A stretch of 64,000 nt of DNA from Vulcanimicrobiota bacterium. GTDB lineage: Bacteria > Vulcanimicrobiota > Vulcanimicrobiia > Eremiobacterales > Eremiobacteraceae. Shown one piece after another: positions 3,005 to 30,886 of the stretch. The stretch spans positions 653,027 to 717,026 of the forward strand of contig CAWDVP010000002.1 of assembly GCA_963805945.1 (NCBI GenBank), written 5' to 3'. The notes beneath the pieces were generated by a model. It was not told the origin of the DNA and made no database searches. It was given only the letters and a program-made list of their open reading frames with translations. A program made the translations under genes and the position numbers. Numbering within the stretch: position 1 is the first letter of the stretch; the number at the start of each line of letters is the position of its first letter.

Positions 3005-3864
3005 TCGCCTTTCGCGCTGGTGTGGGTGTAGAAGCCTTTGCCCGTCTTCACGCCGAGATTGCCGGCGGCGACGAGGTCGCGCAATTCCTTGGGCGCGGCG
3101 AAGCGCGGGCCGTACGCCTTCTCAAGCGTCGCCGCGACGTCGGCGGAGATGTCGAGCCCGAGCATATCGGCGAGCAGGAACGGCCCCATCGGCACGCCGC
3201 CGCGCTCGACGACGATCTTGTCGACCGTCTCGTGGTCGACGCCGAGCTCTTCGCGCGCCTTGATGATCTCGACCATCGATGCCATGAGCACGCGGTTGAC
3301 GACGAAGCCGGCGCACTCTTTGACCTTGACGGGGATCTTGCGCAGCTCTTCGGCGAACGAGACCGCGGTGTCCATCGTGTCCTGGCTCGTCTGGGCGCCG
3401 GCGACCACTTCGATGAGCTTCATGACCGACGCCGGGTTGAAGAAGTGGAAGCCGACGACTTGACCGGGGCGCTTCGTCGCGCTTGCGAGCGCAGATATGG
3501 AAAGCGCCGAGGTGTTGCTCGCGAGGATCGCCGTGCTCTGACAGCGCTTGTCGAGCTCGGCGAAGACCGCCTGTTTGATCTCGAGCTTCTCCGGCACCGC
3601 TTCGACGACGAAGTCGACGTCGCCGAACTCGTCATAGGTGAGCGTCGGCGTGATGAGCGCCATCTTCTCGTCCATCTCGGCCTGCGTGAGCTTGCCGGCC
3701 TTCACGCGCCGCGCGTACACGCCGCTCGCGGTCGCCATGCCGTGGTCGAGCGCCTTCTGATCGACGTCCTTGAGCAGCACCGGCAAGCCGGCCCACGAGA
3801 TCACCTGCGCGATCTCGCCGCCCATCGCACCCGCGCCGACGACGGCGCACTTGAAGATATACAT
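3001..3864 (-). CDS. 3-hydroxyacyl-CoA dehydrogenase
   Basis: GAGAMG, VEAVPE, LASNTS, GFHFFNP, GFVVNR, PMGPF. Confidence 0.95.
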   Translation of the reverse strand: MYIFKCAVVGAGAMGGEIAQVISWAGLPVLLKDVDQKALDHGMATASGVYARRVKAGKLTQAEMDEKMALITPTLTYDEFGDVDFVVEAVPEKLEIKQAVFAELDKRCQSTAILASNTSALSISALASATKRPGQVVGFHFFNPASVMKLIEVVAGAQTSQDTMDTAVSFAEELRKIPVKVKECAGFVVNRVLMASMVEIIKAREELGVDHETVDKIVVERGGVPMGPFLLADMLGLDISADVAATLEKAYGPRFAAPKELRDLVAAGNLGVKTGKGFYTHTSAKGE

Positions 3865-3868
3865 AGGA

Positions 3869-5078
3869 CTACGCGGCCTCCATGTTCTCGATGACGAGCG
3901 AACCGCCCTGACCGCCGCCGACGCACATCGTCACCAGACCGTAGCGTTTGCCGCTGCGGCGCATCTCGAAGACGAGCGTCGTGGTGAGGCGCGAACCGGT
4001 CGCGCCGATCGGGTGGCCTAAGGCGATCGCGCCGCCGTTGACGTTGACGATGCTGCGATCGAGCTCCATGAGCTTCTCGCAGGCGAGGTACTGCGCGGCG
4101 AACGCCTCGTTGAACTCGATGAGCTGGATGTCGTCGAGCGTGATGCCGGCGCGTTGCAGCGCTTTGGGCGTCGCCACCGTCGGTCCGAGGCCCATCGTCT
4201 TGGGGTCGCAGCCGGCGAACGCGTACGAGAGGATGCGCGCGATCGGCTTCAGGCCCAGTTCGCGCGCCTTCGCCGCGCTCGCGACGATGAGCGCCGCACC
4301 CGCGTCGTTGATCGGGCACGAGTTGCCCGGCGTCACCGTGCCGCCTTTCTTGAAGACGGTGGGATAGAGCGCGAGCTTCTGCACCGAGAGACCTGCCTGC
4401 GGCCCCTCGTCCTTGGCGACGGTCTCAGGCTCGCCGTGCTTCTTTGGCACTTGCACGTGCACGAGCTCGTCTGCGAACTTGCCGGTGCGCTGCGCGCGAA
4501 ACGCTTTGTTGTGGCTCTCGACCGCGAGCTGGTCCTGCTGCTCGCGCGTGATGCCGAACTCTTCGGCGAGCACTTCGGCCGTCTGGCCCATGAGCATGCC
4601 GGTGTGATGATCGGTGAGCCCGGTCCAGATCGGGTCGAGCATCTCCGCCGGGCGCAGCCGCGCGCCCCAACGCGCCGACGGGATGATGTATGGCGCCATC
4701 GATTGGTTCTCAGTGCCGCCGACGAGATAGACGTCGCCGTCGCCTGAGGCGATGGCTTGCACCGCGTTGGCGATCGATTGCACGCCGCTCGCGCAATTGC
4801 GCTGCACGCTGTACGCCGGGCGTGCCGATCGGGATGCCGACCTCGAGCGAGATCTGACGCGCGATGTTGGCGAACTCGATGGGCTGGCCGCCGCTGCCGA
4901 TGATGACTTCGTCGATGTGCTCGACGCCGATGCCCGCACGTTCGATCGCCGCCTTGGCGGCGGTGGTGCCGAGCTGGAGGGCGTCGTATTCACGATACGC
5001 GCCGCCGAAGTTGCCGACGGGCGTGCGCGCCGCGCTGAGGATGACCGTGTCGCGGTCGTTCAAGGATCCGTTCTTCAC
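3869..5078 (-). CDS. Acetyl-CoA C-acyltransferase (thiolase), one frameshift near 4818
   Basis: N-term SAARTPVG in ORF 4710..5078; NCASG, NEAFAAQ, GAIALGHPIGATG, MCVGGGQG in ORF 3869..4993. Confidence 0.92.
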
Positions 5079-18631: not shown

Positions 18632-19330
18632 CTACAAGCGCACGTAGGGCGCGAGGCGGTCGAACTTCGACGGCCCGATGCCCGGCACGTTCTGCAGATC
18701 GTCGATGGTCTGGAACGGGCCGTTCTGCTGGCGGAAATCGACGATGCGCCGCGCCAAGCCCGGACCGACACCGGGCAGCTGCACGAGTTGCTCTTCGCCG
18801 GCGGTGTTGACGTCGAGCGTCTGTCCCGGCGCCAATTTGTTGGCGCCTCGTCCGCCGTGCGATCTGCTATGACGCGAGCGATGCACGGGTACGCCGGTAT
18901 CGGCGGTGTACGGGCCTGAGTCAGTCGCGATGGTCTGGCCTTTGTGCGGCACGGTCACCTTCATCGCGTCGCGCAAGGGTTCGGCCAGGTTGATCTGATC
19001 CATGTCGGCATCCGCCGACTCGCCGCCGGCCTGTTTGACCGCGTCGACGACGCGGGCGCCCGGCGCGAAAAGGTAGACGCCGGCGCGCTTCACCGCGCCG
19101 CACACGTAGACCGCGAGTTCGCTCGGCGACGGGCTCGCGGCATCGGGCGAAATGCCGGGGCTCGGAAAGCCGTGCGCGTCGGCGACCAGTGTCGGCGGCA
19201 CTGTGGCCTCGGCCGCAAGCGGGTGTGGCGCGCCCGCCGGCCGCGGCAGCATGAATCCGGCGGCGACGGCGACCGCCGCGCCGCCGATGAGCCAACGTCG
19301 ATCGAATTGCATCGTGGCCACGCCGGACAC
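18632..19330 (-). CDS. comEA: ComEA DNA receptor (SLBB + helix-hairpin-helix)
   Basis: VYVCGAVKRAGVY, INLAEPLRD, VNTA..EQLVQLPGVGP, VPGIGP. Confidence 0.9.
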   Translation of the reverse strand: MSGVATMQFDRRWLIGGAAVAVAAGFMLPRPAGAPHPLAAEATVPPTLVADAHGFPSPGISPDAASPSPSELAVYVCGAVKRAGVYLFAPGARVVDAVKQAGGESADADMDQINLAEPLRDAMKVTVPHKGQTIATDSGPYTADTGVPVHRSRHSRSHGGRGANKLAPGQTLDVNTAGEEQLVQLPGVGPGLARRIVDFRQQNGPFQTIDDLQNVPGIGPSKFDRLAPYVRL

Positions 19331-19391
19331 ATCCCGCGAACGCGGGGCCGCGTCAAGGGCTTCATCGCGAGCCTATGGTACAATTGCCCCG

Positions 19392-21873
19392 ATGGCTGAG
19401 ACACCGATTCCGCCGTACGAACCGCAGGCGATCGAACCGAAATGGCAACGCGCGTGGGCGCAGCGCGGCCAGAACGAGATCCACGAAGATCCCACGCGGC
19501 CGAAATTCTACCTGCTCGAGATGCTGCCGTACCCGAGCGGCGATCTCCACGTCGGCCACGCGCGCAACTACACCCTCGGCGACGTCATCGGCCGCTATTG
19601 GCGCATGCGCGGCCGCAACGTGATGCACCCGATGGGCTGGGACGCCTTCGGCCTGCCCGCCGAAGGCGCCGCCATCCAGCGCGGCATCCACCCGGCCGAC
19701 TGGACCGAGACGAACATCGCGAACATGCGCCGCCAGCTGCAAGGGCTGGGCATCGCCTACGACTGGTCGCGCGAGATCGACACGTCATCGCCGGAATACT
19801 ACCGCTGGACGCAGTGGCTGTTCTTGTTCATGCACCGCAAGGGGCTCGCGTATAAGAAGGAAGCGCCGGTCAACTGGTGCCCGACCGACCAGACGATCCT
19901 CGCCAACGAGCAGGCCGAAGGCGGCGTCTGCTGGCGCTGCGGTTCGCGTGTCGAGCAGCGCATGGTCAACCAATGGTTCTTCAAGACGACGGCGTACGCC
20001 GATCGGCTGCTCGAGGGGCTCGATCGCCTCGAGCATTGGCCGGAGCGCGTCAAGACGATGCAGCGCAATTGGATAGGACGCAGCGAGGGCGTCACGTTCT
20101 CGTTCGAAGTCGGCAACGCGGCGCTTTCGACGTTCACCACGCGGCTCGACACGATCTTCGGCGTCACGTTCATCGCCGTCGCGCTCGACCATCCGCTCGT
20201 CGCGTCGTTCACCGCCGGTACGTCGAAAGAGGCTGCGCAGGTGCGACGAGTTCGTCGACGGACTGAAAAGCAAGAACGAGCTCGAGCGCACGATGATGGA
20301 GAAGCTCGGCGTCTTCTCCGGCGCGCACGCGCGCCATCCGCTCACCGGCGAGCGCATCCCCATCTGGGTCACCAACTACGTGCTCAGCAGCTACGGTTCT
20401 GGCGCGGTCATGGGCGTGCCGGCGCACGATCAGAGAGATTTCGAGTTCGCCCATAAATACCGCATCGACGTGAAGACGGTGGTGACGCCGCCCGGCCAGC
20501 CGGATTTCGTCGCGCGCGATGCCGCATATGTCGACGATGGCGTGCTCGTGCGCTCGCAAGATTTCGACGGCCTGGCAAGCGCGCAAGCGCGCAAAGCGAT
20601 CGCCGAACTGCTCATCGAGCGCGGCATCGGCGAGGAGACCGTCAACTACCGCTTGCGCGATTGGCTGATCTCCCGCCAGCGCTACTGGGGCGCGCCGCTT
20701 CCGTTCGTCAATTGCCCGACCCACGGGCTCGTGCCCGTGCCGGAGGACCAGTTGCCGGTGCTGCTGCCGTACGACGTGCCGATCACCGGCGTGCAAGGCA
20801 GTCCGCTCGCGCAAGTGCCGTCGTTCGTGAACACGACCTGTCCGATCTGCGGCGGTCCCGCCACGCGCGAGACCGACACCATGGACACGTTCATGTGCTC
20901 GTCATGGTATTTCTTGCGCTACCTGAGCCCGCACGACGACAAAGAGCCATGGAGCAAAGAGGCTGCGTCATACTGGGCGCCGGTCGACCACTACATCGGC
21001 GGTATCGAGCACGCGGTCATGCATCTCATGTACGCCCGCTTCTTCTACAAGGTGCTCCACGATGACGGCCTCGTGCCCGAGGACGAGCCCTTCAAGCGGC
21101 TCTTCAATCAGGGGTTCGTGCTGGGCGAGAACAACGAGAAGATGAGCAAGTCGCGCGGCAACGTCGTGGGCATCGACGAGACGGCCGATCGCTACGGCGT
21201 CGACGCGCTGCGCGTTTTCGAGATGTTCGCCGGACCGCCCGACGGGGATTACCCTTGGTCGACGACCGGCATCGCCGGCGCCACCCGCACGCTGCACCGC
21301 GTGTGGAAGCTCGTGCTCGCGCATGCGAACGCGCTGCAACGGCCGCCGCCCGCGGGGCAGGGGGACGGCGTCGCGGATGCCGGCTTACGCTTCAGCGTCC
21401 ATGCTAAGATCAAACAGGTGACCGATGAGATCGGCGACCGCATGCATCTCAATACGTGCGTCGCCGCGATCATGACCTTGCTCAACGACCTCGAGGCGTA
21501 CGCGGCCGCGCACGAGCACCCGTCGCAGTCGAGCGCTTTCGCCGAGGGTCTGCGCGCGCTACTGCTGTTGCTCGCGCCGTTCGCGCCGCACATCACCGAG
21601 GAGCTGTGGGAGCGCACAGGGCATAGCGGCAGCATCCATCTCGAAGCGTGGCCGCGCTATGAAGAGGCCGCGCTCGCGCGCAGCCTCATCCCGTTCGTGA
21701 TCCAGGTGAACGGCAAACACCGCGGCACGATCGAGGCGGCGCCCGGCTCGAGCGAGGACGCCGTCTTCGAACGCGCGACGAAGGTGACGACGGTGAGCGC
21801 TCAGCTCGACGGCAAGAAGGTCCGCAAGCGGATCTTCGTGCCGGACAAGCTGCTCAATATCGTCGTCGCGTAG
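19392..21873 (+). CDS. leuS: Leucine--tRNA ligase, one frameshift near 20245
   Basis: MLPYPSGDLHVGH, GWDAFGLPAE, RDWLISRQRYWG, KMSKS across two frames. Confidence 0.96.
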
Positions 21874-21879
21874 CGGACC

Positions 21880-22359
21880 TTACTTGGTGGCCTTCACCAT
21901 GTTCATGCTCTCCGGACCCATGCCCGTGATCTGGAGGATCACTTCGCCCTTCGATTGGGCGTAGTGGTGCAGGTTCGGGGGAATCGAGACGAACGAACCG
22001 GCGGGCAGTGCCGTCATCTTCGCCGCGTTCCACGTATCGCCGAGACCGACGAGGAATGTGCCGCTGAGTATGGTCACCTGCTCGGTGTTCGTGTGCCAAT
22101 GCGCCGGGAACTTGACGCCGTTATCAAGTTTGTAGCGCATGACGTACACGCCGGTCTTGGTCGGATCGCCGTACAACACGGCGGTTGATACGCCTTTCAT
22201 CTGGGGATACGGCGTCCACTTGACCGAACCGGCCGGCACCACCGTCGGCGTCATGGCCGCGTTCATCATCGCCGGCCCTGACGCCGCCGAGCGTGCGACC
22301 GACGTCAGGCCCACGAACACAAATGCCAGCGCGACGCAGAATAGAAAAGTCTTCTTCAT
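21880..22359 (-). CDS. Exported cupin-domain protein (DUF4437-like)
   Basis: Signal peptide; LYGDPTK, PAHWH...E, GSFVSIP..HHYA. Confidence 0.8.
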   Translation of the reverse strand: MKKTFLFCVALAFVFVGLTSVARSAASGPAMMNAAMTPTVVPAGSVKWTPYPQMKGVSTAVLYGDPTKTGVYVMRYKLDNGVKFPAHWHTNTEQVTILSGTFLVGLGDTWNAAKMTALPAGSFVSIPPNLHHYAQSKGEVILQITGMGPESMNMVKATK

Positions 22360-22459
22360 CTGAAGCAACCTCCGGAACGCCACGGACAGACCCGTGGCGC
22401 AGCATGAGAACATTTGGTGCTTGGACACGCAGGGCACCTCCCCCGCGCAGGACCGGGCT

Positions 22460-23405
22460 TTAGCGCTTGGGCGCGCGACCCTTGAAGAAGTCGACGGTCT
22501 TGGCGATGCCCGCCGTCATCCCCACGCTCGGCTGCCAGCCGAGGACTGTCCTAGCTTTCTCGATCGCGAAGACGCATGTGCGTATATCGCCCGCCCGCTT
22601 CGGCGCGTGCTCCACTTCGACGTCGCGACCGGCGGCGGCTGCGATCGTCGCGTGCAGAGCGTTCACCGACGTGCCGACGCCGCCGCCGATGTTGATCGCC
22701 TCGTCGTCGGCGGCGTCGAGCGCCAAGATGTTCGCGCGCGCGACGTCGGCGACGTAGACGTAGTCGCGCGTCTGCTCGCCATCCCAATCGATGCGGACGC
22801 CGTGCGCGACGAGAACTTCGCGGCGAAGATCGCGATGACGCCCGCTTCGCCGTTGGGATCCTGGCGCGGTCCGTAGACGTTGCCGTAGCGCAACGCCGTG
22901 AAATCCAGGCCCGATCGTTGCGTAATAGCGCAGGTAATGCTCGCCGACCATCTTCGTGATGCCGTACGGCGATTCGGGCAGCTGCGGAGTATCGCCTCGT
23001 CGATCGGCAGGCTACTCCGGCTTGCCGTAGGTCGCGACGCTGAGGCGAAGATGATCTTGCGCGCGCCGGTCGTGCGCACGGCGACTTCGAGCACGTTGAG
23101 CAGTGCCGCGAGACGTTGACGTCGCGAGTCGTAGCGCGGGTCGCGCACGGTCGAGATCGCGACGCTGAGTGCTGCGCGGCGTGATGGCTCACGATCTCCG
23201 GCTGGAAGCCGTCGAAGATCCGGCCAGCGCTTCGTCGCGGATGTCGCCTGTCGCGAAGCGGCGCCTGCGGACACGTTCTCGCGCCGGCCGCCGCCGTGCT
23301 CCCACAGGCTGTCGACGGCGAGCGACATCGTGCCCGGCGGCGACGATAGGCATCGACGACGTGCGAGCCGATGAAGCCGGCGCCGCCGGTGACGAGGATG
23401 CGCAC
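22460..23405 (-). CDS. NAD-dependent epimerase/dehydratase (GalE-like), multiple frameshifts
   Basis: MRILVTGGAGFIGSH, HHAAQ, LRYGNVYGPRQDP, DGEQTRDYVYVADVA in different frames. Confidence 0.85.
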
Positions 23406-23417
23406 GTCTACGCGCGC

Positions 23418-23486
23418 TTAGAGGGTCAGGTGACCGCTGACCAACAGCAGGATCAGGATCAAAACGACGATGATGAAGGTCGTCAC
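23418..23486 (-). CDS. 22-aa hydrophobic micropeptide 1: MTTFIIVVLILILLLVSGHLTL
   Basis: GTG start after AAGGAG RBS; homologous to peptides 2 and 3. Confidence 0.8.
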   Translation of the reverse strand: MTTFIIVVLILILLLVSGHLTL

Positions 23487-23525
23487 GGATACCACTCCTT
23501 CCGTTTTGGTGATCTCGTCACGAGA

Positions 23526-23594
23526 TCAGAGATGCAGATGGCCGGCGACCGCCAGCAAGATCAAGATGAGCAGCGCGATGATGGCCCAAGTCAC
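23526..23594 (-). CDS. 22-aa hydrophobic micropeptide 2: MTWAIIALLILILLAVAGHLHL
   Basis: GTG start after GAGGAGG RBS; tandem with peptide 1. Confidence 0.8.
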   Translation of the reverse strand: MTWAIIALLILILLAVAGHLHL

Positions 23595-23651
23595 GTCATG
23601 TCCCTCCTCGGACTAGACAGCGGACTGTCTGGACTTGCTTGTTCCCTCAAT

Positions 23652-23665
23652 CGAACATGTGTTCC
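23652..23665. promoter_or_regulatory. Candidate LexA (GAAC-N4-GTTC) SOS box
   Basis: CGAACATGTGTTCC between micropeptide pair and comEC. Confidence 0.5.
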
Positions 23666-23683
23666 TATCCGCCTTCTGAGGCT

Positions 23684-23712
23684 TGGAACGGTCGAATTCA
23701 TTCGACCGTCGG
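23684..23712. repeat. Palindromic element copy 2 (intergenic)
   Basis: tggaacggtcgaattcattcgaccgtcgg. Confidence 0.8.
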
Positions 23713-23754
23713 GGAGCTGGACACCGAGCGATGTGGGTGGGACAGTGAAGTGTC

Positions 23755-26190
23755 GTGCACATCGCGGACACCCTGGCGCGCGGCCATCTTCTCGCGATGG
23801 CTTTCGCCGCCTACGCGCTTGGCATCATCGCCGCCGCTCATCACGTGCCGTTGCTGGCGAACGCGAGCATTGCGCTCGCGCTCGGCGTCATTCTACCCGG
23901 CGCTTTCGCCCTTGAAACGCACCTGCGTCGCGCCGCGTTGCTGTGCGCGGCCTGCTTGGCCGGTGGAGCAGCGGCGGCGATCGCCGCCGAGCATCATAGT
24001 CAAGCGCTAGGGCTCGACGCGCTCGACGGCAAGCACGTCGTCTGCGAGGTGGTCGCGCTGGAGCGCCCGCGTCCATCGTCGTCTGGCCTGTCCGTCCGGG
24101 TCCGCATAGAGCAGGTCGCATCGACTGCCGGCCCGGCTGCCCGCTTGCGCGGCGTGGGCGCTGTGCTCGAGATGCCCGAGTCGAGCGAGGCACGCCGATT
24201 CGCCGGACAGCTGCTGCGGATCCGTGCGCGCATCGGCGTGCCGTCGGGGCCGCGCAACGAGGGCGAGCCGGCGGAACGCGACCAGCTCGCGGAGCAAGGC
24301 GTGACCCTCGTGCTCGTCGCGCAGCGTCCGCGCGACGTCGCGCCGCTCGGCGCAGCTGTAGGTTGGCAGGCGTGGTGGGCGCGGCTGCGTTCGCGCTTCG
24401 CCGCTGCGGTCGAGTCGCGTCTGCCGCCGCTAGAAGCGACCGTGCTCGAGGGCGTGCTGTGGGGCGATCGGGGCGAACTGCCCGCCGCGCTGCGCCAAGA
24501 GTTCTCGGACACCGGCGCCGTGCATGTGCTCACCACCGCGGGCCTGCACTTGGGCATCATGGCGGCGCTCGTCGCCGCGTTGCTGCTGCAGACGCCATTG
24601 CCGCGACCCGCTCGCTCCGCGCTCGTGATCGCGGCCGGTTGGGCGTACGCGATGCTCGCGGGCATGCATCTGCCGACGCTGCGCGCCGCCACGATGCTCA
24701 CCGCAGGTATGCTCGCGGTCGAAAGCGGGCGCGGCCGCACCGCGTCGGCGGTGCTAGCCGCCGCGGCGTTCTCCGTGACGCTCGTCCATCCGCTCGCGCT
24801 GCTGTCGCCATCGTTCTCGATGTCGTTCGCCTGTGTCGGCGGCATCGCGCTGCTCAGCCCGGCGCTGAGCGCGCTCGGTCTGCGCGGCGGCGAGTGGTTG
24901 CCGCACTGGATGGCGGAGCTGGTGCGAACCGGCCTGTGCGTCCAGCTCGCGCTGTGGCCGTTGCAGGCGCTGTACTTCAATGCGTTCACGCCGTATGCGG
25001 TGGCCGCCAATCTCGTCGTCGTGCCGATGGTCGGCTTCGTCATGGCGACGGGCACCGCGTATGCCGGCGCGGCGTTGTTCTTCGCGCCGCTCGCGCAGCC
25101 GCTCGGCAATCTCACCTGGTGGTGTCTCACCGCGCTCATCGCCGCGGTCGAACGGTTCGCTGAGCTGCCGTTCGCGCACGTCGACGTACCGCCGCCGAGC
25201 CACGCGTTCCTCGTCGCCTATTGGCTCGCGCTTGCGGCGTTCGCTCGCGCGGCGCACGCGGGCGTCGCATGGCGGCATATCGTGAAAGTCGGCATTCCCG
25301 CGGCGCTGGCTCTCGCACTCGTCTACTGCGCGCCGGGCATCGCCGCTGCGCTTGATCCGCGTTTGCACCTCGACGCCATCGACGTCGGACAAGCTGACTG
25401 CCTGCTCGTGCGCGCACCCGGCATGCACGCGATGCTGGTGGATGGCGGCGGCAAGCTAGAACGCGGCGGCGGCGCTGTGGTCGCGCAGCCCATCGGCGAT
25501 CGCATCGCGGCGCGCACCGTCATGCCGTTTCTGCTGCGGCATTGGGTGCTGCATCTCGATGCAGTCGTGCTGACGCATCCGCATGGCGACCACGCCGGCG
25601 GTCTGCCGGTCATCCTCGCACGGGAGCGGGTCGGTGCGCTCTATGACTCCGCGCAGCTCTACGGCGGCCCGGCATATCAACGCGCGCTGGAGATCATGCG
25701 CGAGAAAGGCATCCCTTGGTTAGCAGCGCGGCGCGGCACGCGCTTCGATCTCGGGCCGCAGACGCACGTCGTCGTCCTCGCACCCGAGCTGCCGCTCATC
25801 ACCGGCACGAGTTCGGATATCAACAACAATTCCGTCGTCCTGCGGGTGGAGTTCGGCCGCACTGCGCTGCTGCTCACCGGGGACGCCCAATCGGAAGCCG
25901 AGGTTCGGCTGCTCTCGCACGGTGGCGGCGATTTACGCGCCGACATCCTCAAGGTCGGCCATCACGGGAGCGCGTATTCATCGACGCCGGAATTCTTGGC
26001 CGCCGTCCGCCCGAAGATCGCGCTCATCTCGTGCGGCAGGCACAACGTGTTCGGCCACCCAAGCCCGGGGACACTGGACGCGCTCCGCGCCGAAGGCGCC
26101 GCGATATACCGCACGGATACGGATGGCGGCATTTCGATCGAGACCGATGGCGCGAGCATCGAAACGAAGACGGCCGCCGCACCGGAATAA
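23755..26190 (+). CDS. comEC: ComEC/Rec2 DNA uptake channel with metallo-beta-lactamase domain
   Basis: TGAVHVLTTAGLH, SFSMSF, DVGQAD, THPHGDH, KVGHHGS, FGHP. Confidence 0.93.
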   Translation: MHIADTLARGHLLAMAFAAYALGIIAAAHHVPLLANASIALALGVILPGAFALETHLRRAALLCAACLAGGAAAAIAAEHHSQALGLDALDGKHVVCEVVALERPRPSSSGLSVRVRIEQVASTAGPAARLRGVGAVLEMPESSEARRFAGQLLRIRARIGVPSGPRNEGEPAERDQLAEQGVTLVLVAQRPRDVAPLGAAVGWQAWWARLRSRFAAAVESRLPPLEATVLEGVLWGDRGELPAALRQEFSDTGAVHVLTTAGLHLGIMAALVAALLLQTPLPRPARSALVIAAGWAYAMLAGMHLPTLRAATMLTAGMLAVESGRGRTASAVLAAAAFSVTLVHPLALLSPSFSMSFACVGGIALLSPALSALGLRGGEWLPHWMAELVRTGLCVQLALWPLQALYFNAFTPYAVAANLVVVPMVGFVMATGTAYAGAALFFAPLAQPLGNLTWWCLTALIAAVERFAELPFAHVDVPPPSHAFLVAYWLALAAFARAAHAGVAWRHIVKVGIPAALALALVYCAPGIAAALDPRLHLDAIDVGQADCLLVRAPGMHAMLVDGGGKLERGGGAVVAQPIGDRIAARTVMPFLLRHWVLHLDAVVLTHPHGDHAGGLPVILARERVGALYDSAQLYGGPAYQRALEIMREKGIPWLAARRGTRFDLGPQTHVVVLAPELPLITGTSSDINNNSVVLRVEFGRTALLLTGDAQSEAEVRLLSHGGGDLRADILKVGHHGSAYSSTPEFLAAVRPKIALISCGRHNVFGHPSPGTLDALRAEGAAIYRTDTDGGISIETDGASIETKTAAAPE

Positions 26191-26212
26191 GAAGTCGAAG
26201 GAACTAGGAACA

Positions 26213-27362
26213 ATGCCTACACGCATAGTGGTGCTCGGCGCCGGCTTCGGAGGACTCGAGCTGACGACGATCCTTTCGGATGCGTTCGGCGACGGACTCG
26301 ATCTCGTGCTCATCGACAAGAGCGACGCGTTCGTCTTCGGCTTCTCGAAGCTCGACGTCATGTTCGGACGGATCGAGCTCGCGCAGGTGCGCCACCCATA
26401 TCGCGACGTCGTCAAACCAGGTGTGCGGTTCGTCCAGACGACGGTGCGCTCCATCGACCCAGCCGCGCGGCGCGTGAAGACCGACGCGGGGACGTTCGAC
26501 GCGGACGTCCTCGTCGTCGCGCTCGGCGCGGATTACGACATCGCGGCGACGCCCGGGCTCGCGCAAGGCAACGAGTTCTACTCGATCGCGGGCGCGAATC
26601 GCGCTGCGCGACGTTTTGCCGCGCTTCGAGCGCGGCACGGCGATCATCGGCGTGACCTCGACGCCGTACAAATGCCCGCCGGCGCCAAGCGAGGCGGCGT
26701 TTCTGCTGCACGACTACCTCACCACGCGCGGCCGGCGCGCCGCGGTCGATATCTCGGTGGTGATCCCGTTCGGCCGGCCCATTCCCCCGTCGCCTGACAC
26801 CTCGAAGGCGATTCTCGCCGGCTTCGCCGAGCGCAACATCCGCTGGGTCCCCGAGCGCGAGGTGAGCGCTCTCGACCCGAACCGAAAGGTCGCGATGTTG
26901 GACGACGGCACGGAGATGCCGTACGACTTGTTCCTCGGCGTGCCCGTGCATCGGGTGCCGAAGGTCGTCGAGGAATCCGGCCTGGCCGTCGACGGCTGGG
27001 TACCGGTGAATCCCAAGACGCTGGAGACGCGCTTTCCGGGAGTCTATGCCGTCGGCGACGTGGCGCTCGTGGGCACGCCGAAGGCCGGCGTGTTCTCGGA
27101 GGGCCAAGCGCGCGTGGTGGCGGCGGAGATCACCGCGCAACTCAAAGGCGGTCCGTCAGCACAGCCCTACTCGGGGATCGGCGCGTGCTACATCGAGTTC
27201 GGCGGCGATGTCGTCGGGCGAGTCGTGGTGGATTTCTTCAGCGGCCCTGAACCGACGGGTACGTTTGACGCGCCGTCCGCGGCGCTCGTCGCAGACAAGG
27301 CGGAGTTCGGCTCCAGCCGCATCGCGCGCTGGTTCTCACGACCGCACGACGCGCGCGGCTGA
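26213..27362 (+). CDS. FAD-dependent oxidoreductase, sulfide:quinone oxidoreductase-like; frameshift near 26600
   Basis: VVLGAGFGG, YKCPPAPSE, VYAVGDV, PKAGVF, GACYIEFG. Confidence 0.75.
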
Positions 27363-27386
27363 TCTGCTAGAAAGATCTGGAAGACT

Positions 27387-28139
27387 ATGCTGCAAGCAGG
27401 ATCACCCGCACGCGATGCGACGCGCATCGTACCGCTTATGGGTCTCGCAGGCGCGCTGCGAGCCGTGCCCAGCGCGAAGCTCACCTATCGCGGCGGCCCG
27501 CTCATCGCCAACGCCGAAGTGACCACCGTCTTCTGGGGCGGGTGGTGGCTCAAAGCGCCGCAGGCCGACATCGTCACGCGCCTCAACAAGTTCTTCGACG
27601 ACATCTTGGTGAGCGCGCTCATGGACCAACTCGCAGAATATAGCGTGCCGGGCACCGCGATCGGCCACGGCAAGCGCGTCGCGACCGCAACGGTCGATAC
27701 CGCGCCGCCGGCGACGGTCGATGACGCGGGCATCACCTCGTTCCTGCAAGGGCTGATCGCCGCGAAGAGCGTGCCGGCCGCCAACGCCAACTCGATCTAT
27801 TTCGTGTACTTGCCCTCCGGCGTCAGCGTGACGATGGGCGGCCAGGCGTCATGCAGCTCGTTCTGCGGCTATCACGACATCATCGGAGGGAAGATCGCGT
27901 ACGCGGTCGAGCCGTACCCCGATTGCACAGGCTGTATGGGCGGTCTTGCGGCGTTCGACGCCCTCACGGTCACCTCGTCGCACGAGTTGTGCGAGGCGGT
28001 GACCGATCCCGTCCCCGGTCACGGCTGGTACGATGATGTCAACGGCGAGATCGGCGACATTTGCGCCTGGCAGTTCAAGAAGGTCGCCGCCTACACCGTG
28101 CAGCTCGAATGGTCCAACAAGGCCGGCGCCTGCGTGTGA
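27387..28139 (+). CDS. Hypothetical protein, Phi-1/EXORDIUM-like
   Basis: LTYRGGPLI, VFWG, FCGYH, SHELCEAVTDP, GWYD...EIGDICAW. Confidence 0.6.
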   Translation: MLQAGSPARDATRIVPLMGLAGALRAVPSAKLTYRGGPLIANAEVTTVFWGGWWLKAPQADIVTRLNKFFDDILVSALMDQLAEYSVPGTAIGHGKRVATATVDTAPPATVDDAGITSFLQGLIAAKSVPAANANSIYFVYLPSGVSVTMGGQASCSSFCGYHDIIGGKIAYAVEPYPDCTGCMGGLAAFDALTVTSSHELCEAVTDPVPGHGWYDDVNGEIGDICAWQFKKVAAYTVQLEWSNKAGACV

Positions 28140-28166
28140 GCGGCCGGCCCTAGTCGGAGGATGCGG

Positions 28167-28919
28167 CTATCTCACCACGACGGTGAGGGACATGTTGTTA
28201 TGCCCGACGCCGCACTCGATCGCGCAGTGGATGACGTACGTCCCCACGGTCCTCGGCGTAAAGGTCACGCGCACGGGTTGACCCGGTCTGATCGTCGTGA
28301 GCGGGATGCCGAGCGCGTCCGATTGGATGCCGTGCACGCCTGAAGTTGAGGTCAATCGCAGCGTCTCTGGTGTGCCGACGGCGATGGTGATCGTGTTCGG
28401 CGTGAACTGCCAGTCGGATGCGACGATGTTGGTCAGATTGCTGACCGTCGGAGTCGCGGTCGGCGGAGGAACTGCCGATGCCGGCGCTCCGGCCGAGGCC
28501 ACGGTCACCGTCTGCGAGTTATCGTCATAGTTGACGCTCGCTCCGAGCGCTTCGGAGATGAACCGCAGCGGCACCAACGTGCGCGCGCCGACCAAGAACG
28601 GGGCGACGTCGAGCGTGGTCGGCTGACCGTTCACGGTCGCCGTCGTCGAGCCGATATGCAATTGGATGTTGCGGCCGTTGCCGGTGGCGTTGATCGCGCC
28701 GTTGTCGTAGACGACGCTCGCGCCCAGGCGCTCGAAGACGCCGCGCAGCGGCACGAAGACCCGCCCGCTTCGCTCGATCGGCGGCTGATCGAACGTCATC
28801 GCCTGGCCGTTGACGACGATGCGCACGTCGGCCAAGGCCGGTGCCGATGAGAATAAGCCGAGGATCAGACTGAGAAACAAGACTCCGGTGACGAGCGTGA
28901 GAAAACGAAGGATTCGCAT
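28167..28919 (-). CDS. Exported copper-amine-oxidase N-terminal (stalk) domain + CuA-type cupredoxin fusion
   Basis: GRVFVPLRGVFERLGA / RTLVPLRFISEALGA; C-term VHG...CAIECGVGHNNM. Confidence 0.82.
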   Translation of the reverse strand: MRILRFLTLVTGVLFLSLILGLFSSAPALADVRIVVNGQAMTFDQPPIERSGRVFVPLRGVFERLGASVVYDNGAINATGNGRNIQLHIGSTTATVNGQPTTLDVAPFLVGARTLVPLRFISEALGASVNYDDNSQTVTVASAGAPASAVPPPTATPTVSNLTNIVASDWQFTPNTITIAVGTPETLRLTSTSGVHGIQSDALGIPLTTIRPGQPVRVTFTPRTVGTYVIHCAIECGVGHNNMSLTVVVR

Positions 28920-29010
28920 ATGATGCCTCTTTCTGATAGAGGCATACCCAATTCTGAGGCGCGGCAACCAGGTCTAATCGTGCATTCGGCTCGCGGCGGG
29001 CGTGTTGCGA

Positions 29011-29041
29011 CACGGCCGACCTTTGGGTCGGCCGTGCCTAC
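29011..29041 (-). repeat. GTAG-type REP palindrome just 3' of micropeptide 3
   Basis: Minus strand gtaggcacggccgacccaaaggtcggccgtg. Confidence 0.65.
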
Positions 29042-29056
29042 GACCGGTCGAGGGGT

Positions 29057-29125
29057 TTAGAGCTTGAGGTGTCCGGTCACCGCGAGTAGGATCAAGACCA
29101 GTAAGACGACGACGAGAACGTCCAT
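29057..29125 (-). CDS. 22-aa hydrophobic micropeptide 3: MDVLVVVLLVLILLAVTGHLKL
   Basis: ATG start after AAGGAGGT RBS; homologous to peptides 1 and 2. Confidence 0.85.
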   Translation of the reverse strand: MDVLVVVLLVLILLAVTGHLKL

Positions 29126-29164
29126 GTGCGATCCACCTCCTTGATAGATAGGATCGCTATGCTT

Positions 29165-29190
29165 ATACCCGCTTTGCGCCGCGATTAAAC
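29165..29190 (-). promoter_or_regulatory. SigB/SigF-type promoter of micropeptide 3
   Basis: Minus strand GTTTAA-N14-GGGTAT, matching the B. subtilis SigB consensus. Confidence 0.65.
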
Positions 29191-29196
29191 CCCTGC

Positions 29197-29721
29197 TCAC
29201 TTGCCGCTATGGCCCGCAAATCGGACTTGCGCCACCAGGGCGTTGAGGGCCGCTGCGGAGGACGCCGAGATGCCGCGCGCCGCCAAGATCGCCAGCGACG
29301 CGTAGTGGGAAGAATCGAGCTTGACGAGCACGAGTCGCATGTCGATCACGACGCCTCTGTCGTTGCTCATCGTCGTGATGAACGCTTCACCGGGGATGCC
29401 CGCGATGGATCCAGGCTCGCTCTTCGTGTACGGGGCTGCGCCCGCGGCCTTGATGATCTTCACCGCGACCTCGGGCGCCGTCGCCGTGGCGACCGATGGA
29501 TCGACGATAAACGATAACAGCAGCGCGCTGGATCTGTCGTCTGCGGTGACGCGCATGTTGCCGAAGTTGTCCTGCGCCGATGACCAGCCGGTCGGCAGAT
29601 CGAAGGCATAGGCCGGAGTGCCGGTGGCGGGGAAGCGTATCGAGTCGGCGCGCGCTCCGGAGATGCCCAACACCGTCAGGCCGAGCAGTACGAACAAGAT
29701 CGCAGAGCTGGTGCGGATCAT
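29197..29721 (-). CDS. Exported hypothetical protein
   Basis: Signal peptide ending ARA; AGGAG RBS; FDLPTGW. Confidence 0.7.
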   Translation of the reverse strand: MIRTSSAILFVLLGLTVLGISGARADSIRFPATGTPAYAFDLPTGWSSAQDNFGNMRVTADDRSSALLLSFIVDPSVATATAPEVAVKIIKAAGAAPYTKSEPGSIAGIPGEAFITTMSNDRGVVIDMRLVLVKLDSSHYASLAILAARGISASSAAALNALVAQVRFAGHSGK

Positions 29722-29845
29722 CGGTCACTCCTGATGCGGCGGCGCAACGAAACGGCTTCGAGCCGCGTTTGCGGTTTGAGAAGCCTTCTCTCTTCTTATT
29801 CACGGCTCTTCGCGCCGTGATGTGACCTTGAAAGGTCGGAACTCG

Positions 29846-30886
29846 ATGAAGCTCCCCGCTCGCAGCCTTGTCGCCGCGCTTTCGCTCGGCGTGCTGCTCG
29901 TCCTGAGCAGGCAACCGGCGGCTGCTGCGACGGCCTACCTCACGCTGTCGGGTCCCAACCCGTTCAACGGCACGTGCCCGGCCACGCTCAACTTCACCGG
30001 CCATATCGACGGCCCCGCCAGCTCGAGCGTCACGTACAACTTCGCCTGGTTCACCAATGGCGCGTGGTTCCGCCCCGCCGCCGTCACCGCCACGATCCCG
30101 GCAGGCGGCTCGCTGCCGTTGACGGGCGCCGTGACCGCCGACACCGCGCACCAAGGGCTGCAATCCTACGAGGTCGACATCTCTGCGCCGGCGGGCAGCG
30201 ACAGCGCCACGCACGGCAAAGTGTTCTACACGGTCCATTGCTCGACGCTCGTCGCCGTGCCCACGACACCGCTCCCGCTGCGGCCGGTGATAGTGCTCCC
30301 CGTCTCCGCGAGCATCGCGTACTTCCGCGACGCGACGGGAGCCAACTTCATCTGCGGACGGTTGACGCACTACGGCACCATCCCGACGGATTTCGGCGGC
30401 GCGGTCGCCGTAGGGTACACCCATTCCCAGACAGGCGGTCCGAACGGCGACCCATGCGGCGTTCACGACGACGTCATCTACCGCATCATGCTCGCGTCGG
30501 GGTTTTCGGCGATTCACGGCCGGCTCAGTTCGGTCGTGCTCACCGCGACGCACACCGGCACCGACGCCAACACGGCGTGCAAGCTGGACGCGCTGACCCG
30601 AGTGTCCGGCGCGTTCCGCGAAGGCGACGTCCACGATGCGAGCGGCTTCTCCACCGCCACCGGCGTGTCGTGGTACTCCTCGAATCCCACCTCGGTGCAC
30701 TATCAGATCTATCCCACGACGGATCCCATCGCCGGCCCCGCCACCAACGCGCTGTTACAAGCGCTCTTCGGCGGCGGCGGCACGCTGCAGCTCATGCTGC
30801 GCGGGCCGAATGAGCACATCGACCGCGATAATCTGCGCTGCCTGCTCAAGTTCACGACCTTCAAGCTCAACGTCATCGCGGGCTAA
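29846..30886 (+). CDS. Exported hypothetical protein, beta-rich, two apparent domains
   Basis: Signal peptide MKLPARSL...AAAA; genome-like codon usage; Pro-rich linker. Confidence 0.7.
   Translation: MKLPARSLVAALSLGVLLVLSRQPAAAATAYLTLSGPNPFNGTCPATLNFTGHIDGPASSSVTYNFAWFTNGAWFRPAAVTATIPAGGSLPLTGAVTADTAHQGLQSYEVDISAPAGSDSATHGKVFYTVHCSTLVAVPTTPLPLRPVIVLPVSASIAYFRDATGANFICGRLTHYGTIPTDFGGAVAVGYTHSQTGGPNGDPCGVHDDVIYRIMLASGFSAIHGRLSSVVLTATHTGTDANTACKLDALTRVSGAFREGDVHDASGFSTATGVSWYSSNPTSVHYQIYPTTDPIAGPATNALLQALFGGGGTLQLMLRGPNEHIDRDNLRCLLKFTTFKLNVIAG

Follow-up and report, generated by a model that had tools for sequence, protein, structure and literature searches.

Three 22-codon genes in the window

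The window analysed here is a 64-kb stretch of contig CAWDVP010000002.1 (65.4% G+C) from a Vulcanimicrobiota bacterium. Its minus strand carries three open reading frames (ORFs) of 22 codons, whose predicted products are hydrophobic peptides ending in Gly-His-Leu-x-Leu (GHLxL). A previous reading of the letters by themselves (the sequence-only reading) had described them as three 69-nucleotide (nt) ORFs on that strand, equal in length, alignable without gaps, sharing a C-terminal motif and each preceded by a strong Shine-Dalgarno (SD) site. The coordinates and peptides that it listed are exact, the gapless alignment with its shared motif was borne out, and an SD site was found 8–9 nt upstream of each start. 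The genes and their SD sites are as follows (aa, amino acids; HMM, hidden Markov model).

23418..23486, minus strand: micropeptide gene 1, MTTFIIVVLILILLLVSGHLTL, 22 aa, GTG start, TAA stop
23526..23594, minus strand: micropeptide gene 2, MTWAIIALLILILLAVAGHLHL, 22 aa, GTG start, TGA stop
29057..29125, minus strand: micropeptide gene 3, MDVLVVVLLVLILLAVTGHLKL, 22 aa, ATG start, TAA stop; HMM E 1.3e-11
23495..23500, minus strand: Shine-Dalgarno AAGGAG, 8 nt 5' of the gene 1 GTG
23603..23609, minus strand: Shine-Dalgarno GAGGAGG, 8 nt 5' of the gene 2 GTG
29135..29142, minus strand: Shine-Dalgarno AAGGAGGT, 9 nt 5' of the gene 3 ATG

The GTG start codons of genes 1 and 2 are read as Met. These two genes form a tandem pair, in which gene 2 comes first and is the ortholog of copies that we call F-type, and gene 1 comes second and is the ortholog of G-type copies; the stop codon of gene 1 lies 12 nt from the start of an epimerase gene. 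Gene 3 appears to be a separate small transcription unit, and 15 of the 22 residues of its peptide are Leu, Ile or Val.

Six-frame translation of the window places GHLxL followed by a stop codon at three sites, which are these three ORFs. An HMM of the family (described below), run on the 11,438 stop-to-stop segments of all six frames, recovered the same three with E-values of 1e-9 to 1e-11 and no fourth copy. Between any two of the genes, 41–45 of 69 nt and 11–15 of 22 aa are identical. This likeness is confined to the ORF and its ribosome-binding site, and the flanks diverge. The pairwise ratio of non-synonymous to synonymous substitution (dN/dS, Nei-Gojobori) is 0.21–0.49, a noisy estimate from only 20 codons, and for that reason our claim of selection is carried by the larger family.

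Relatives in protein databases and genomes

We searched 1.84 billion representative proteins (E ≤ 1e-3) with a profile built from the three peptides and their upstream in-frame residues. This returned 33 matches. We discounted two of them, both long repetitive proteins, as noise; each of the remaining 31, with lengths of 25–151 aa, carries the peptide as its last 22 residues. Of these 31, 28 end in GHL[KRH]L and three in GHVRL, GHASL and GHANL. Because their N-terminal parts are mutually unrelated, we regard all 31 as over-extended gene calls in G+C-rich DNA, and it is only in this wrongly extended form that public protein sets carry the family. A word-index protein search with a 47-aa, upstream-extended version of the ORF found four unnamed proteins.

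At the DNA level, a degenerate pattern covering the 15 C-terminal codons and the stop was scanned against one genome per species for 185,579 species. The scan gave 40 loci with 45 unique matches, 41 of which are small ORFs of the family. The other four are chance matches (two in Lachnospiraceae, one in Chloroflexota and one in Thermoguttaceae, the last ending in TGG and not in a stop codon). An HMM built from the pattern-found family ORFs was then run on all six frames of the scanned loci and the window. It identified 54 unique copies in total, three in the window and 51 in 22 assemblies, including ten that the DNA pattern had overlooked. Together with the 31 database proteins, these 51 copies settle the question, raised by the sequence-only reading, of whether the family has homologs elsewhere. 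Besides the window, it extends to at least 22 assemblies and to many metagenomic proteins.

Each assembly has one to four copies within the 10-kb loci, often as tandem pairs separated by 21–148 nt. Length is nearly uniform, with 39 of the 54 copies at exactly 22 aa and the others reaching 23–29 aa through N-terminal additions. All but one of the 54 end in GHLxL, and 53 have a start codon (30 GTG, 21 ATG and 2 TTG).

Translation signals and selection on the peptide

Upstream of the start codon (−16 to −5), 52 of the 54 copies have an SD-like 4-mer, against a background of 9.4% when every ATG/GTG position of these loci is counted; for an SD-like 5-mer the figures are 49 of 54 and 3.3%. Conservation across copies extends to the start codon, SD site and start-to-stop distance.

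Variation among the 53 distinct 69-nt sequences follows the codon, with an entropy of 0.86, 0.32 and 1.36 at codon positions 1, 2 and 3. Residues L14, V16, G18, H19 and L22 are invariant, and conservation reaches 90% or more at L11, I12, L13 and L20. Behind this constancy the DNA changes freely: G18 is written with all four GGN codons (GGC/GGT/GGA/GGG, 27/10/9/7) and H19 with both His codons (CAT/CAC, 27/26), several codons serve for each of L14, V16 and L22, and TAG, TAA and TGA are all in use as stops. His19, with the invariant Gly just before it, is present without exception in the 54 copies and the 31 database proteins. Judged by these substitution patterns, strong purifying selection is acting on the amino-acid sequence of the family, which agrees with what the sequence-only reading had supposed from synonymous divergence among the three ORFs.

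A conserved epimerase locus

The tandem pair in the window lies between two recognisable genes.

22460..23405, minus strand: GalE-like NAD-dependent sugar epimerase/dehydratase, downstream of genes 2 and 1 in the same orientation, spread over at least three reading frames
23755..26190, plus strand: comEC, 811 aa, divergent from the peptide pair, a conserved neighbour

We compared neighbourhoods using an ORF list filtered by G+C content at third codon positions and Pfam, with 237 of the 310 candidate ORFs scanned. The order is the same in every assembly: a divergent comEC, the peptide gene or tandem pair, the GalE-like epimerase and a convergent leuS. We confirmed comEC in 17 loci and leuS in 20, and the remaining loci run off the contig or are unscanned. 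Without exception among the 22 assemblies, and likewise in the window, the epimerase directly follows one copy or tandem pair at a spacing of 7–71 nt. Pfam confirmed it in 21 assemblies (20 as one ORF, with that of L022 split), and in L021 it was recognised through the epimerase alignment. Intact epimerases in the Pfam-scanned assemblies have 307–316 aa and match PF01370 with E-values of about 1e-55 to 1e-62. An exception is the ORF at 3531-4943 (minus strand) of L028, with 470 aa against the usual 310 or so, which points to fusion with downstream sequence through loss of the stop codon or an error in frame.

The spacer between peptide stop and epimerase start differs by type. It is 7–12 nt in the clade with F-G pairs (12 nt in the window) and in L012, and 39–71 nt elsewhere (39–64 nt for A-type copies). 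F and G are themselves separated by 39–45 nt in six of six cases, and genes 2 and 1 of the window are such a pair. Genomes of clade A have just one epimerase-linked copy. At the syntenic site of L016 the peptide is identical to that of gene 3.

In a maximum-likelihood tree of 21 epimerases, the type of peptide tracks the branching of the enzyme, with support of 98/95 for clade A, 98/95 for the clade uniting E with FG and 100/99 for FG. Over 210 genome pairs, the epimerase-linked peptide has a mean identity of 0.78 (0.87 over its 12 C-terminal residues) and the epimerase one of 0.71, and the third codon positions of the peptide gene differ at 49% of sites.

Several of the metagenome-assembled genomes (MAGs) that share this synteny are titled Acidiferrales, Proteobacteria, 'uncultured proteobacterium' or Binatus (L001, L005, L010, L019/L020, L025, L034, L037, L038). 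Their epimerases nest among rows labelled Eremiobacterota, and that of the 'Binatus' genome L019 is sister to L030. Because of this nesting the Acidiferrales, Proteobacteria and Binatus labels are doubtful, and the records look mislabelled or the bins mixed. By epimerase phylogeny and shared synteny, all copies found here come from one Eremiobacterota lineage. To judge from these loci, the epimerase-linked copy is a core, vertically inherited gene of that lineage. Members of the Eremiobacterota (WPS-2, Vulcanimicrobiota) abound in soils that are cold, acidic and poor in nutrients, and very few of them have been cultured.

Copies away from the epimerase

At least 28 of the 54 copies lie away from the epimerase locus, and many of these precede a hairpin or a convergent gene. 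Some adjoin a TonB-dependent receptor and a sortilin/BNR protein (four assemblies) or tig-clpP-clpX (two assemblies), and others come after a short-chain dehydrogenase/reductase gene (three assemblies). Several of the copies that come last in a cluster stand alone as short units, closed by a GC hairpin and a T-run.

A diverged fourth paralog type, M-[VL]-TAILVIVALIFL-[IM]-VSGHLKL, is present at L016 1824-1892, L019 5180-5248 and L030 5178-5246. In all three it sits 130–148 nt after a copy of the gene 3 type. The window lacks this partner; there, the next gene is only 90 nt away from gene 3.

Upstream DNA, promoters and RNA structure

Three further features on the minus strand accompany the peptide genes (bp, base pairs; MFE, minimum free energy).

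23629..23668, minus strand: conserved DNA motif (AGGAAC, about 16 nt, GGAAC, a few nt, AAGTCCAG) between comEC and the peptide pair
29009..29038, minus strand: hairpin of 13 bp, GC-rich, 18 nt past the gene 3 stop, from the MFE structure
23511..23527, minus strand: hairpin of 7 bp with a 3-nt loop, overlapping the gene 2 stop, within the 39-nt spacer between genes 2 and 1

Alignments of the A, E and F loci show the motif, as AGGAAC...GGAA[AC]...AAGTCCAG, to be conserved across all three clades. It also occurs at L001, L011-L013, L015, L016, L019, L021, L022, L024-L026, L028-L030, L033, L035, L037 and L039. It is probably a promoter or operator. A promoter of the kind used by extracytoplasmic function (ECF) sigma factors (GGAAC, 15–18 nt, CGTC/GGTT) was found at 13 of the 54 copies, compared with a background of 3%; we keep this as a lead only, because most of the matches are orthologous sequence and not independent events.

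RNAalifold predicted no pairs (0) across 21 upstream regions, and we therefore dropped the idea of a structured leader RNA. The 186-nt stretch that holds the hairpin downstream of gene 3 has an MFE z-score of −3.06. That this hairpin terminates gene 3 is only a possibility, because it has no T-run. A scan for sigma-70-like promoters on the opposite strand at the three genes found none, although such a scan is weak for the promoters of this phylum.

Rfam, searched with 22300-30000, gave only two sub-threshold chance matches, to radC RNA (E 0.1) and mir-598. The radC RNA match (28685-28819, plus strand) scores 25.2 bits against a gathering score of 40, lies opposite a Cu_amine_oxidN1/cupredoxin coding region and is most likely chance.

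Comparison with known families

The sequence-only reading had not recognised the family, and our searches of Pfam, NCBIfam, PDB and Rfam agree with it. None of the three window peptides matched any Pfam or NCBIfam family at E ≤ 10. Eight further members were compared with NCBIfam, where seven had no match and one had a sub-threshold match (E = 0.01) to an unrelated family. A profile of 46 family members had no match among PDB sequences at E ≤ 10. In the full-text literature, with supplements and subscription journals outside the search, we found neither the core string LLAVTGHL nor anything relevant on small proteins of Eremiobacterota.

A feature search of the ESM Atlas had a best score of 0.82, and all of its hits are 'hypothetical'. 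Its only named lead is DUF3309 (PF11752), which resembles the family in comprising short, Leu/Ile-rich bacterial membrane peptides. This lead is weak, with a score of 0.75 and DUF3309 present in 23% of the members of that cluster, and Pfam does not assign any of the three window peptides to it at E ≤ 10.

Phenol-soluble modulins and delta-toxin are similar in size (about 20–26 residues), and they too have no signal peptide and come from tandem small genes. They are, however, amphipathic surfactant helices, unlike the uniformly aliphatic peptides described here with their fixed G-H-L-x-L end.

By all of these comparisons, the family is of the kind of bacterial single-helix microproteins, among which its core status across this lineage, orthologous tandem pairs and invariant C-terminal cap are unusual.

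Proposed nature of the peptides

We favour, with a probability of roughly 60 per cent, the reading that these peptides are a core, lineage-specific and previously undescribed family of single-pass membrane microproteins of about 22 residues, which would act by helix packing. Each peptide would be little more than one transmembrane helix, with a short polar N-terminus (formyl-Met, then Asp, Glu or Thr), some 15 aliphatic residues and the invariant cap V-x-G-H-L-x-L-COOH, whose x positions are mostly taken by Lys, Arg, His or Thr. With a grand average of hydropathy (GRAVY) of 2.25–2.52, the 22-mer is uniformly aliphatic; its N-terminus is acidic or polar, and its C-terminus is basic and contains the His.

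Because a 22-mer stays in the exit tunnel until termination, the peptide would insert into the membrane after release from the ribosome and not by co-translational targeting. By the positive-inside rule, the basic C-terminus would face the cytoplasm and the N-terminus the outside, which would put His19 at the membrane interface on the cytoplasmic side. Of the 12 C-terminal residues, nine are invariant or nearly so (L11-L14, V16, G18-L20 and L22), and between them they cover every face of the helix; the helix is therefore probably packed all round and not free in lipid. Its packing partners may be other peptides, in homo- or hetero-oligomers of the tandem-encoded pairs, or a conserved membrane protein to which it would belong as an accessory or regulatory subunit. 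Spacers of 7–12 nt in the F-G clade suggest translational coupling to the epimerase, which is a soluble enzyme; we saw no evidence that it interacts with the peptide.

The closest functional parallels for this reading are KdpF, CydX, AcrZ, MgtS/MgtR and the sarcolipin-like regulators, which have one transmembrane helix in 20–50 residues and act through intramembrane packing. The family shares with them the single helix and the all-round conservation that burial in a complex would give. As a rule, a microprotein of the KdpF, CydX and AcrZ kind has one gene copy, which is encoded alongside the partner or regulated together with it, whereas this family has several paralogs, no membrane complex as a constant neighbour and no sequence similarity to that kind in the Pfam, NCBIfam and PDB searches.

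Several points weigh against our preferred reading. We infer the topology, the oligomerisation and any partner of the peptides. The neighbourhoods name no membrane partner, since the sole constant neighbour is the soluble GalE-like epimerase and the other contexts vary. It is also unusual for a genome to have several paralogs of a subunit that is stoichiometric in a single complex. Because the DNA pattern demanded Gly-His and the final Leu, the invariance of G18, H19 and L22 is in part built in; the ten copies found by the HMM alone and the 31 database proteins, found without the pattern, keep the same residues, which reduces this circularity and does not remove it. Finally, copies were counted within 10-kb loci around pattern matches, which makes the copy numbers lower bounds, and the taxonomic range, based on a single pattern scan, may be wider.

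What stands out about the family is that an apparently core, multi-copy set of genes in an Eremiobacterota lineage is conserved beyond the housekeeping enzyme next to it and escapes standard annotation, its genes being only 69 nt long. With the Gly-His-Leu-x-Leu cap, the orthologous tandem pairs and a fixed place at the head of a sugar-epimerase operon, it offers a testable small-protein case.

Alternative explanations

The sequence-only reading had put forward three possible roles: a type I toxin-like pore former, a stress-induced regulator of a membrane protein and a helix that binds metal or heme through its His. Foremost among the alternatives, and in our view unlikely, is that the peptides are type I toxin-like: they would depolarise or permeabilise the membrane, be silenced by antisense RNAs and owe their copies to duplication of the locus, as in Ibs/Sib. 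The type I toxins Ibs, Ldr, TisB and ShoB consist of about 20–30 residues, almost all hydrophobic, and are multicopy, in some cases tandem, intergenic, each narrow in taxonomic range and missed by gene callers. The family is likewise small, nearly all hydrophobic, multicopy, tandem, intergenic, narrow in taxonomic range and overlooked by gene callers. At 22 aa and a GRAVY of 2.25–2.52 it also falls within the size limit for such toxins (<60 aa, one hydrophobic helix), and the short stand-alone units with a GC hairpin and T-run also speak for this reading. The likeness ends with the sequence, as no toxin family in Pfam or NCBIfam matches any of the three peptides at E ≤ 10. Unlike these toxins, one copy of the family is a syntenic core gene, fixed as the first gene of the epimerase operon in 22 of 22 assemblies, with its type following the epimerase tree. 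Type I toxins diverge quickly, whereas the residues here are conserved at least at the level of the housekeeping enzyme (0.78 against 0.71). Of the 54 copies, 52 have a strong, canonical ribosome-binding site that is not hidden, and we found no consensus 5' RNA structure, no Rfam match and no sigma-70-like promoter on the opposite strand in a scan that is weak for this phylum.

It is quite unlikely that the family binds a cofactor, with two or more of the tandem 22-residue helices forming oligomers whose Gly-His, at the cytoplasmic face, would serve as a ligand for a metal ion or heme, or else line a proton path. Such a role would account for a His that is invariant in every copy and database protein and always follows an invariant Gly, and for the recurrence, across genomes, of tandem pairs that keep their partner types (F beside G, and the gene 3 type beside its diverged partner). 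The single epimerase-linked copy of clade A genomes fits it poorly, as does a chain with only three residues beyond the His. Nor is any cofactor-biosynthesis or redox gene consistently adjacent, and the PDB profile search gave no match. If such oligomers or cofactor sites did exist, the peptides would be among the smallest natural cofactor-binding or channel-forming membrane proteins, and a lineage-specific core component below the length cut-offs of gene callers would have been missed by annotation.

Light-harvesting-like pigment binding was also considered, an A-x-x-x-H spacing being present in the family, and was dropped because the family sits in a lineage that is not known to be phototrophic. 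A paper on Vulcanimicrobium alpinus reports a normal pufBALMC operon (PMC9758169).

All 22 assemblies and the window have one copy that precedes the epimerase by 7–71 nt and shares its orientation, a position that would also suit a leader peptide, that is, an upstream ORF whose Leu/Ile/Val-rich translation, or stalling at the C-terminal motif, controls the epimerase. We hold this to be very unlikely. Leaders of branched-chain amino-acid operons are rich in such residues, as is the gene 3 peptide (15 of 22), and some arrest peptides are conserved beside the stop codon, as the family is; the short spacer of the F-G clade would in addition fit translational coupling. A spacer of 7–12 nt (F-G clade, L012 and the window), however, has no room for a terminator/antiterminator switch, and the downstream gene is not one for amino-acid biosynthesis. 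The choice among Leu, Ile and Val at each position is conserved through synonymous change, which codon-counting attenuation would not need. Moreover, the majority location is elsewhere: at least 28 of the 54 copies are off the epimerase locus, many of them before a hairpin or convergent gene.

That the ORFs are chance openings, or an open non-coding DNA or RNA repeat, is hardly credible: they are very short, below what any gene caller reports, and lie in 65% G+C DNA rich in spurious ORFs, but their substitutions are codon-periodic (with four Gly, two His and three stop codons in use), start codon, SD site and exact distance to the stop are conserved, and the flanks diverge while the ORF stays, with no consensus RNA structure.

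Neighbouring and frame-split genes

Three ORFs surround gene 3, at 27387-28139 (plus strand, 250 aa), 29197-29721 (minus strand, 174 aa) and 29822-30886 (plus strand, 354 aa). They have no match in Pfam or NCBIfam, and at least two of them have signal-peptide-like hydrophobic N-termini.

Three genes of the window are split between reading frames. For the epimerase, PF01370 matches fall in three different ORFs, and tblastn with the intact L017 homolog gave two high-scoring segment pairs in two frames, the longer with 45% identity. The leuS gene (19152-21873, plus strand) has one frame change near 20240-20290, and a Pyr_redox_2 oxidoreductase (25922-27362, plus strand) occupies two frames. Most homologs of these three genes in the other assemblies are intact. 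Since leuS is essential, indel errors in a long-read assembly are likelier than pseudogenes. The same kind of gene splits is seen in L022, which comes from a similar MAG series.

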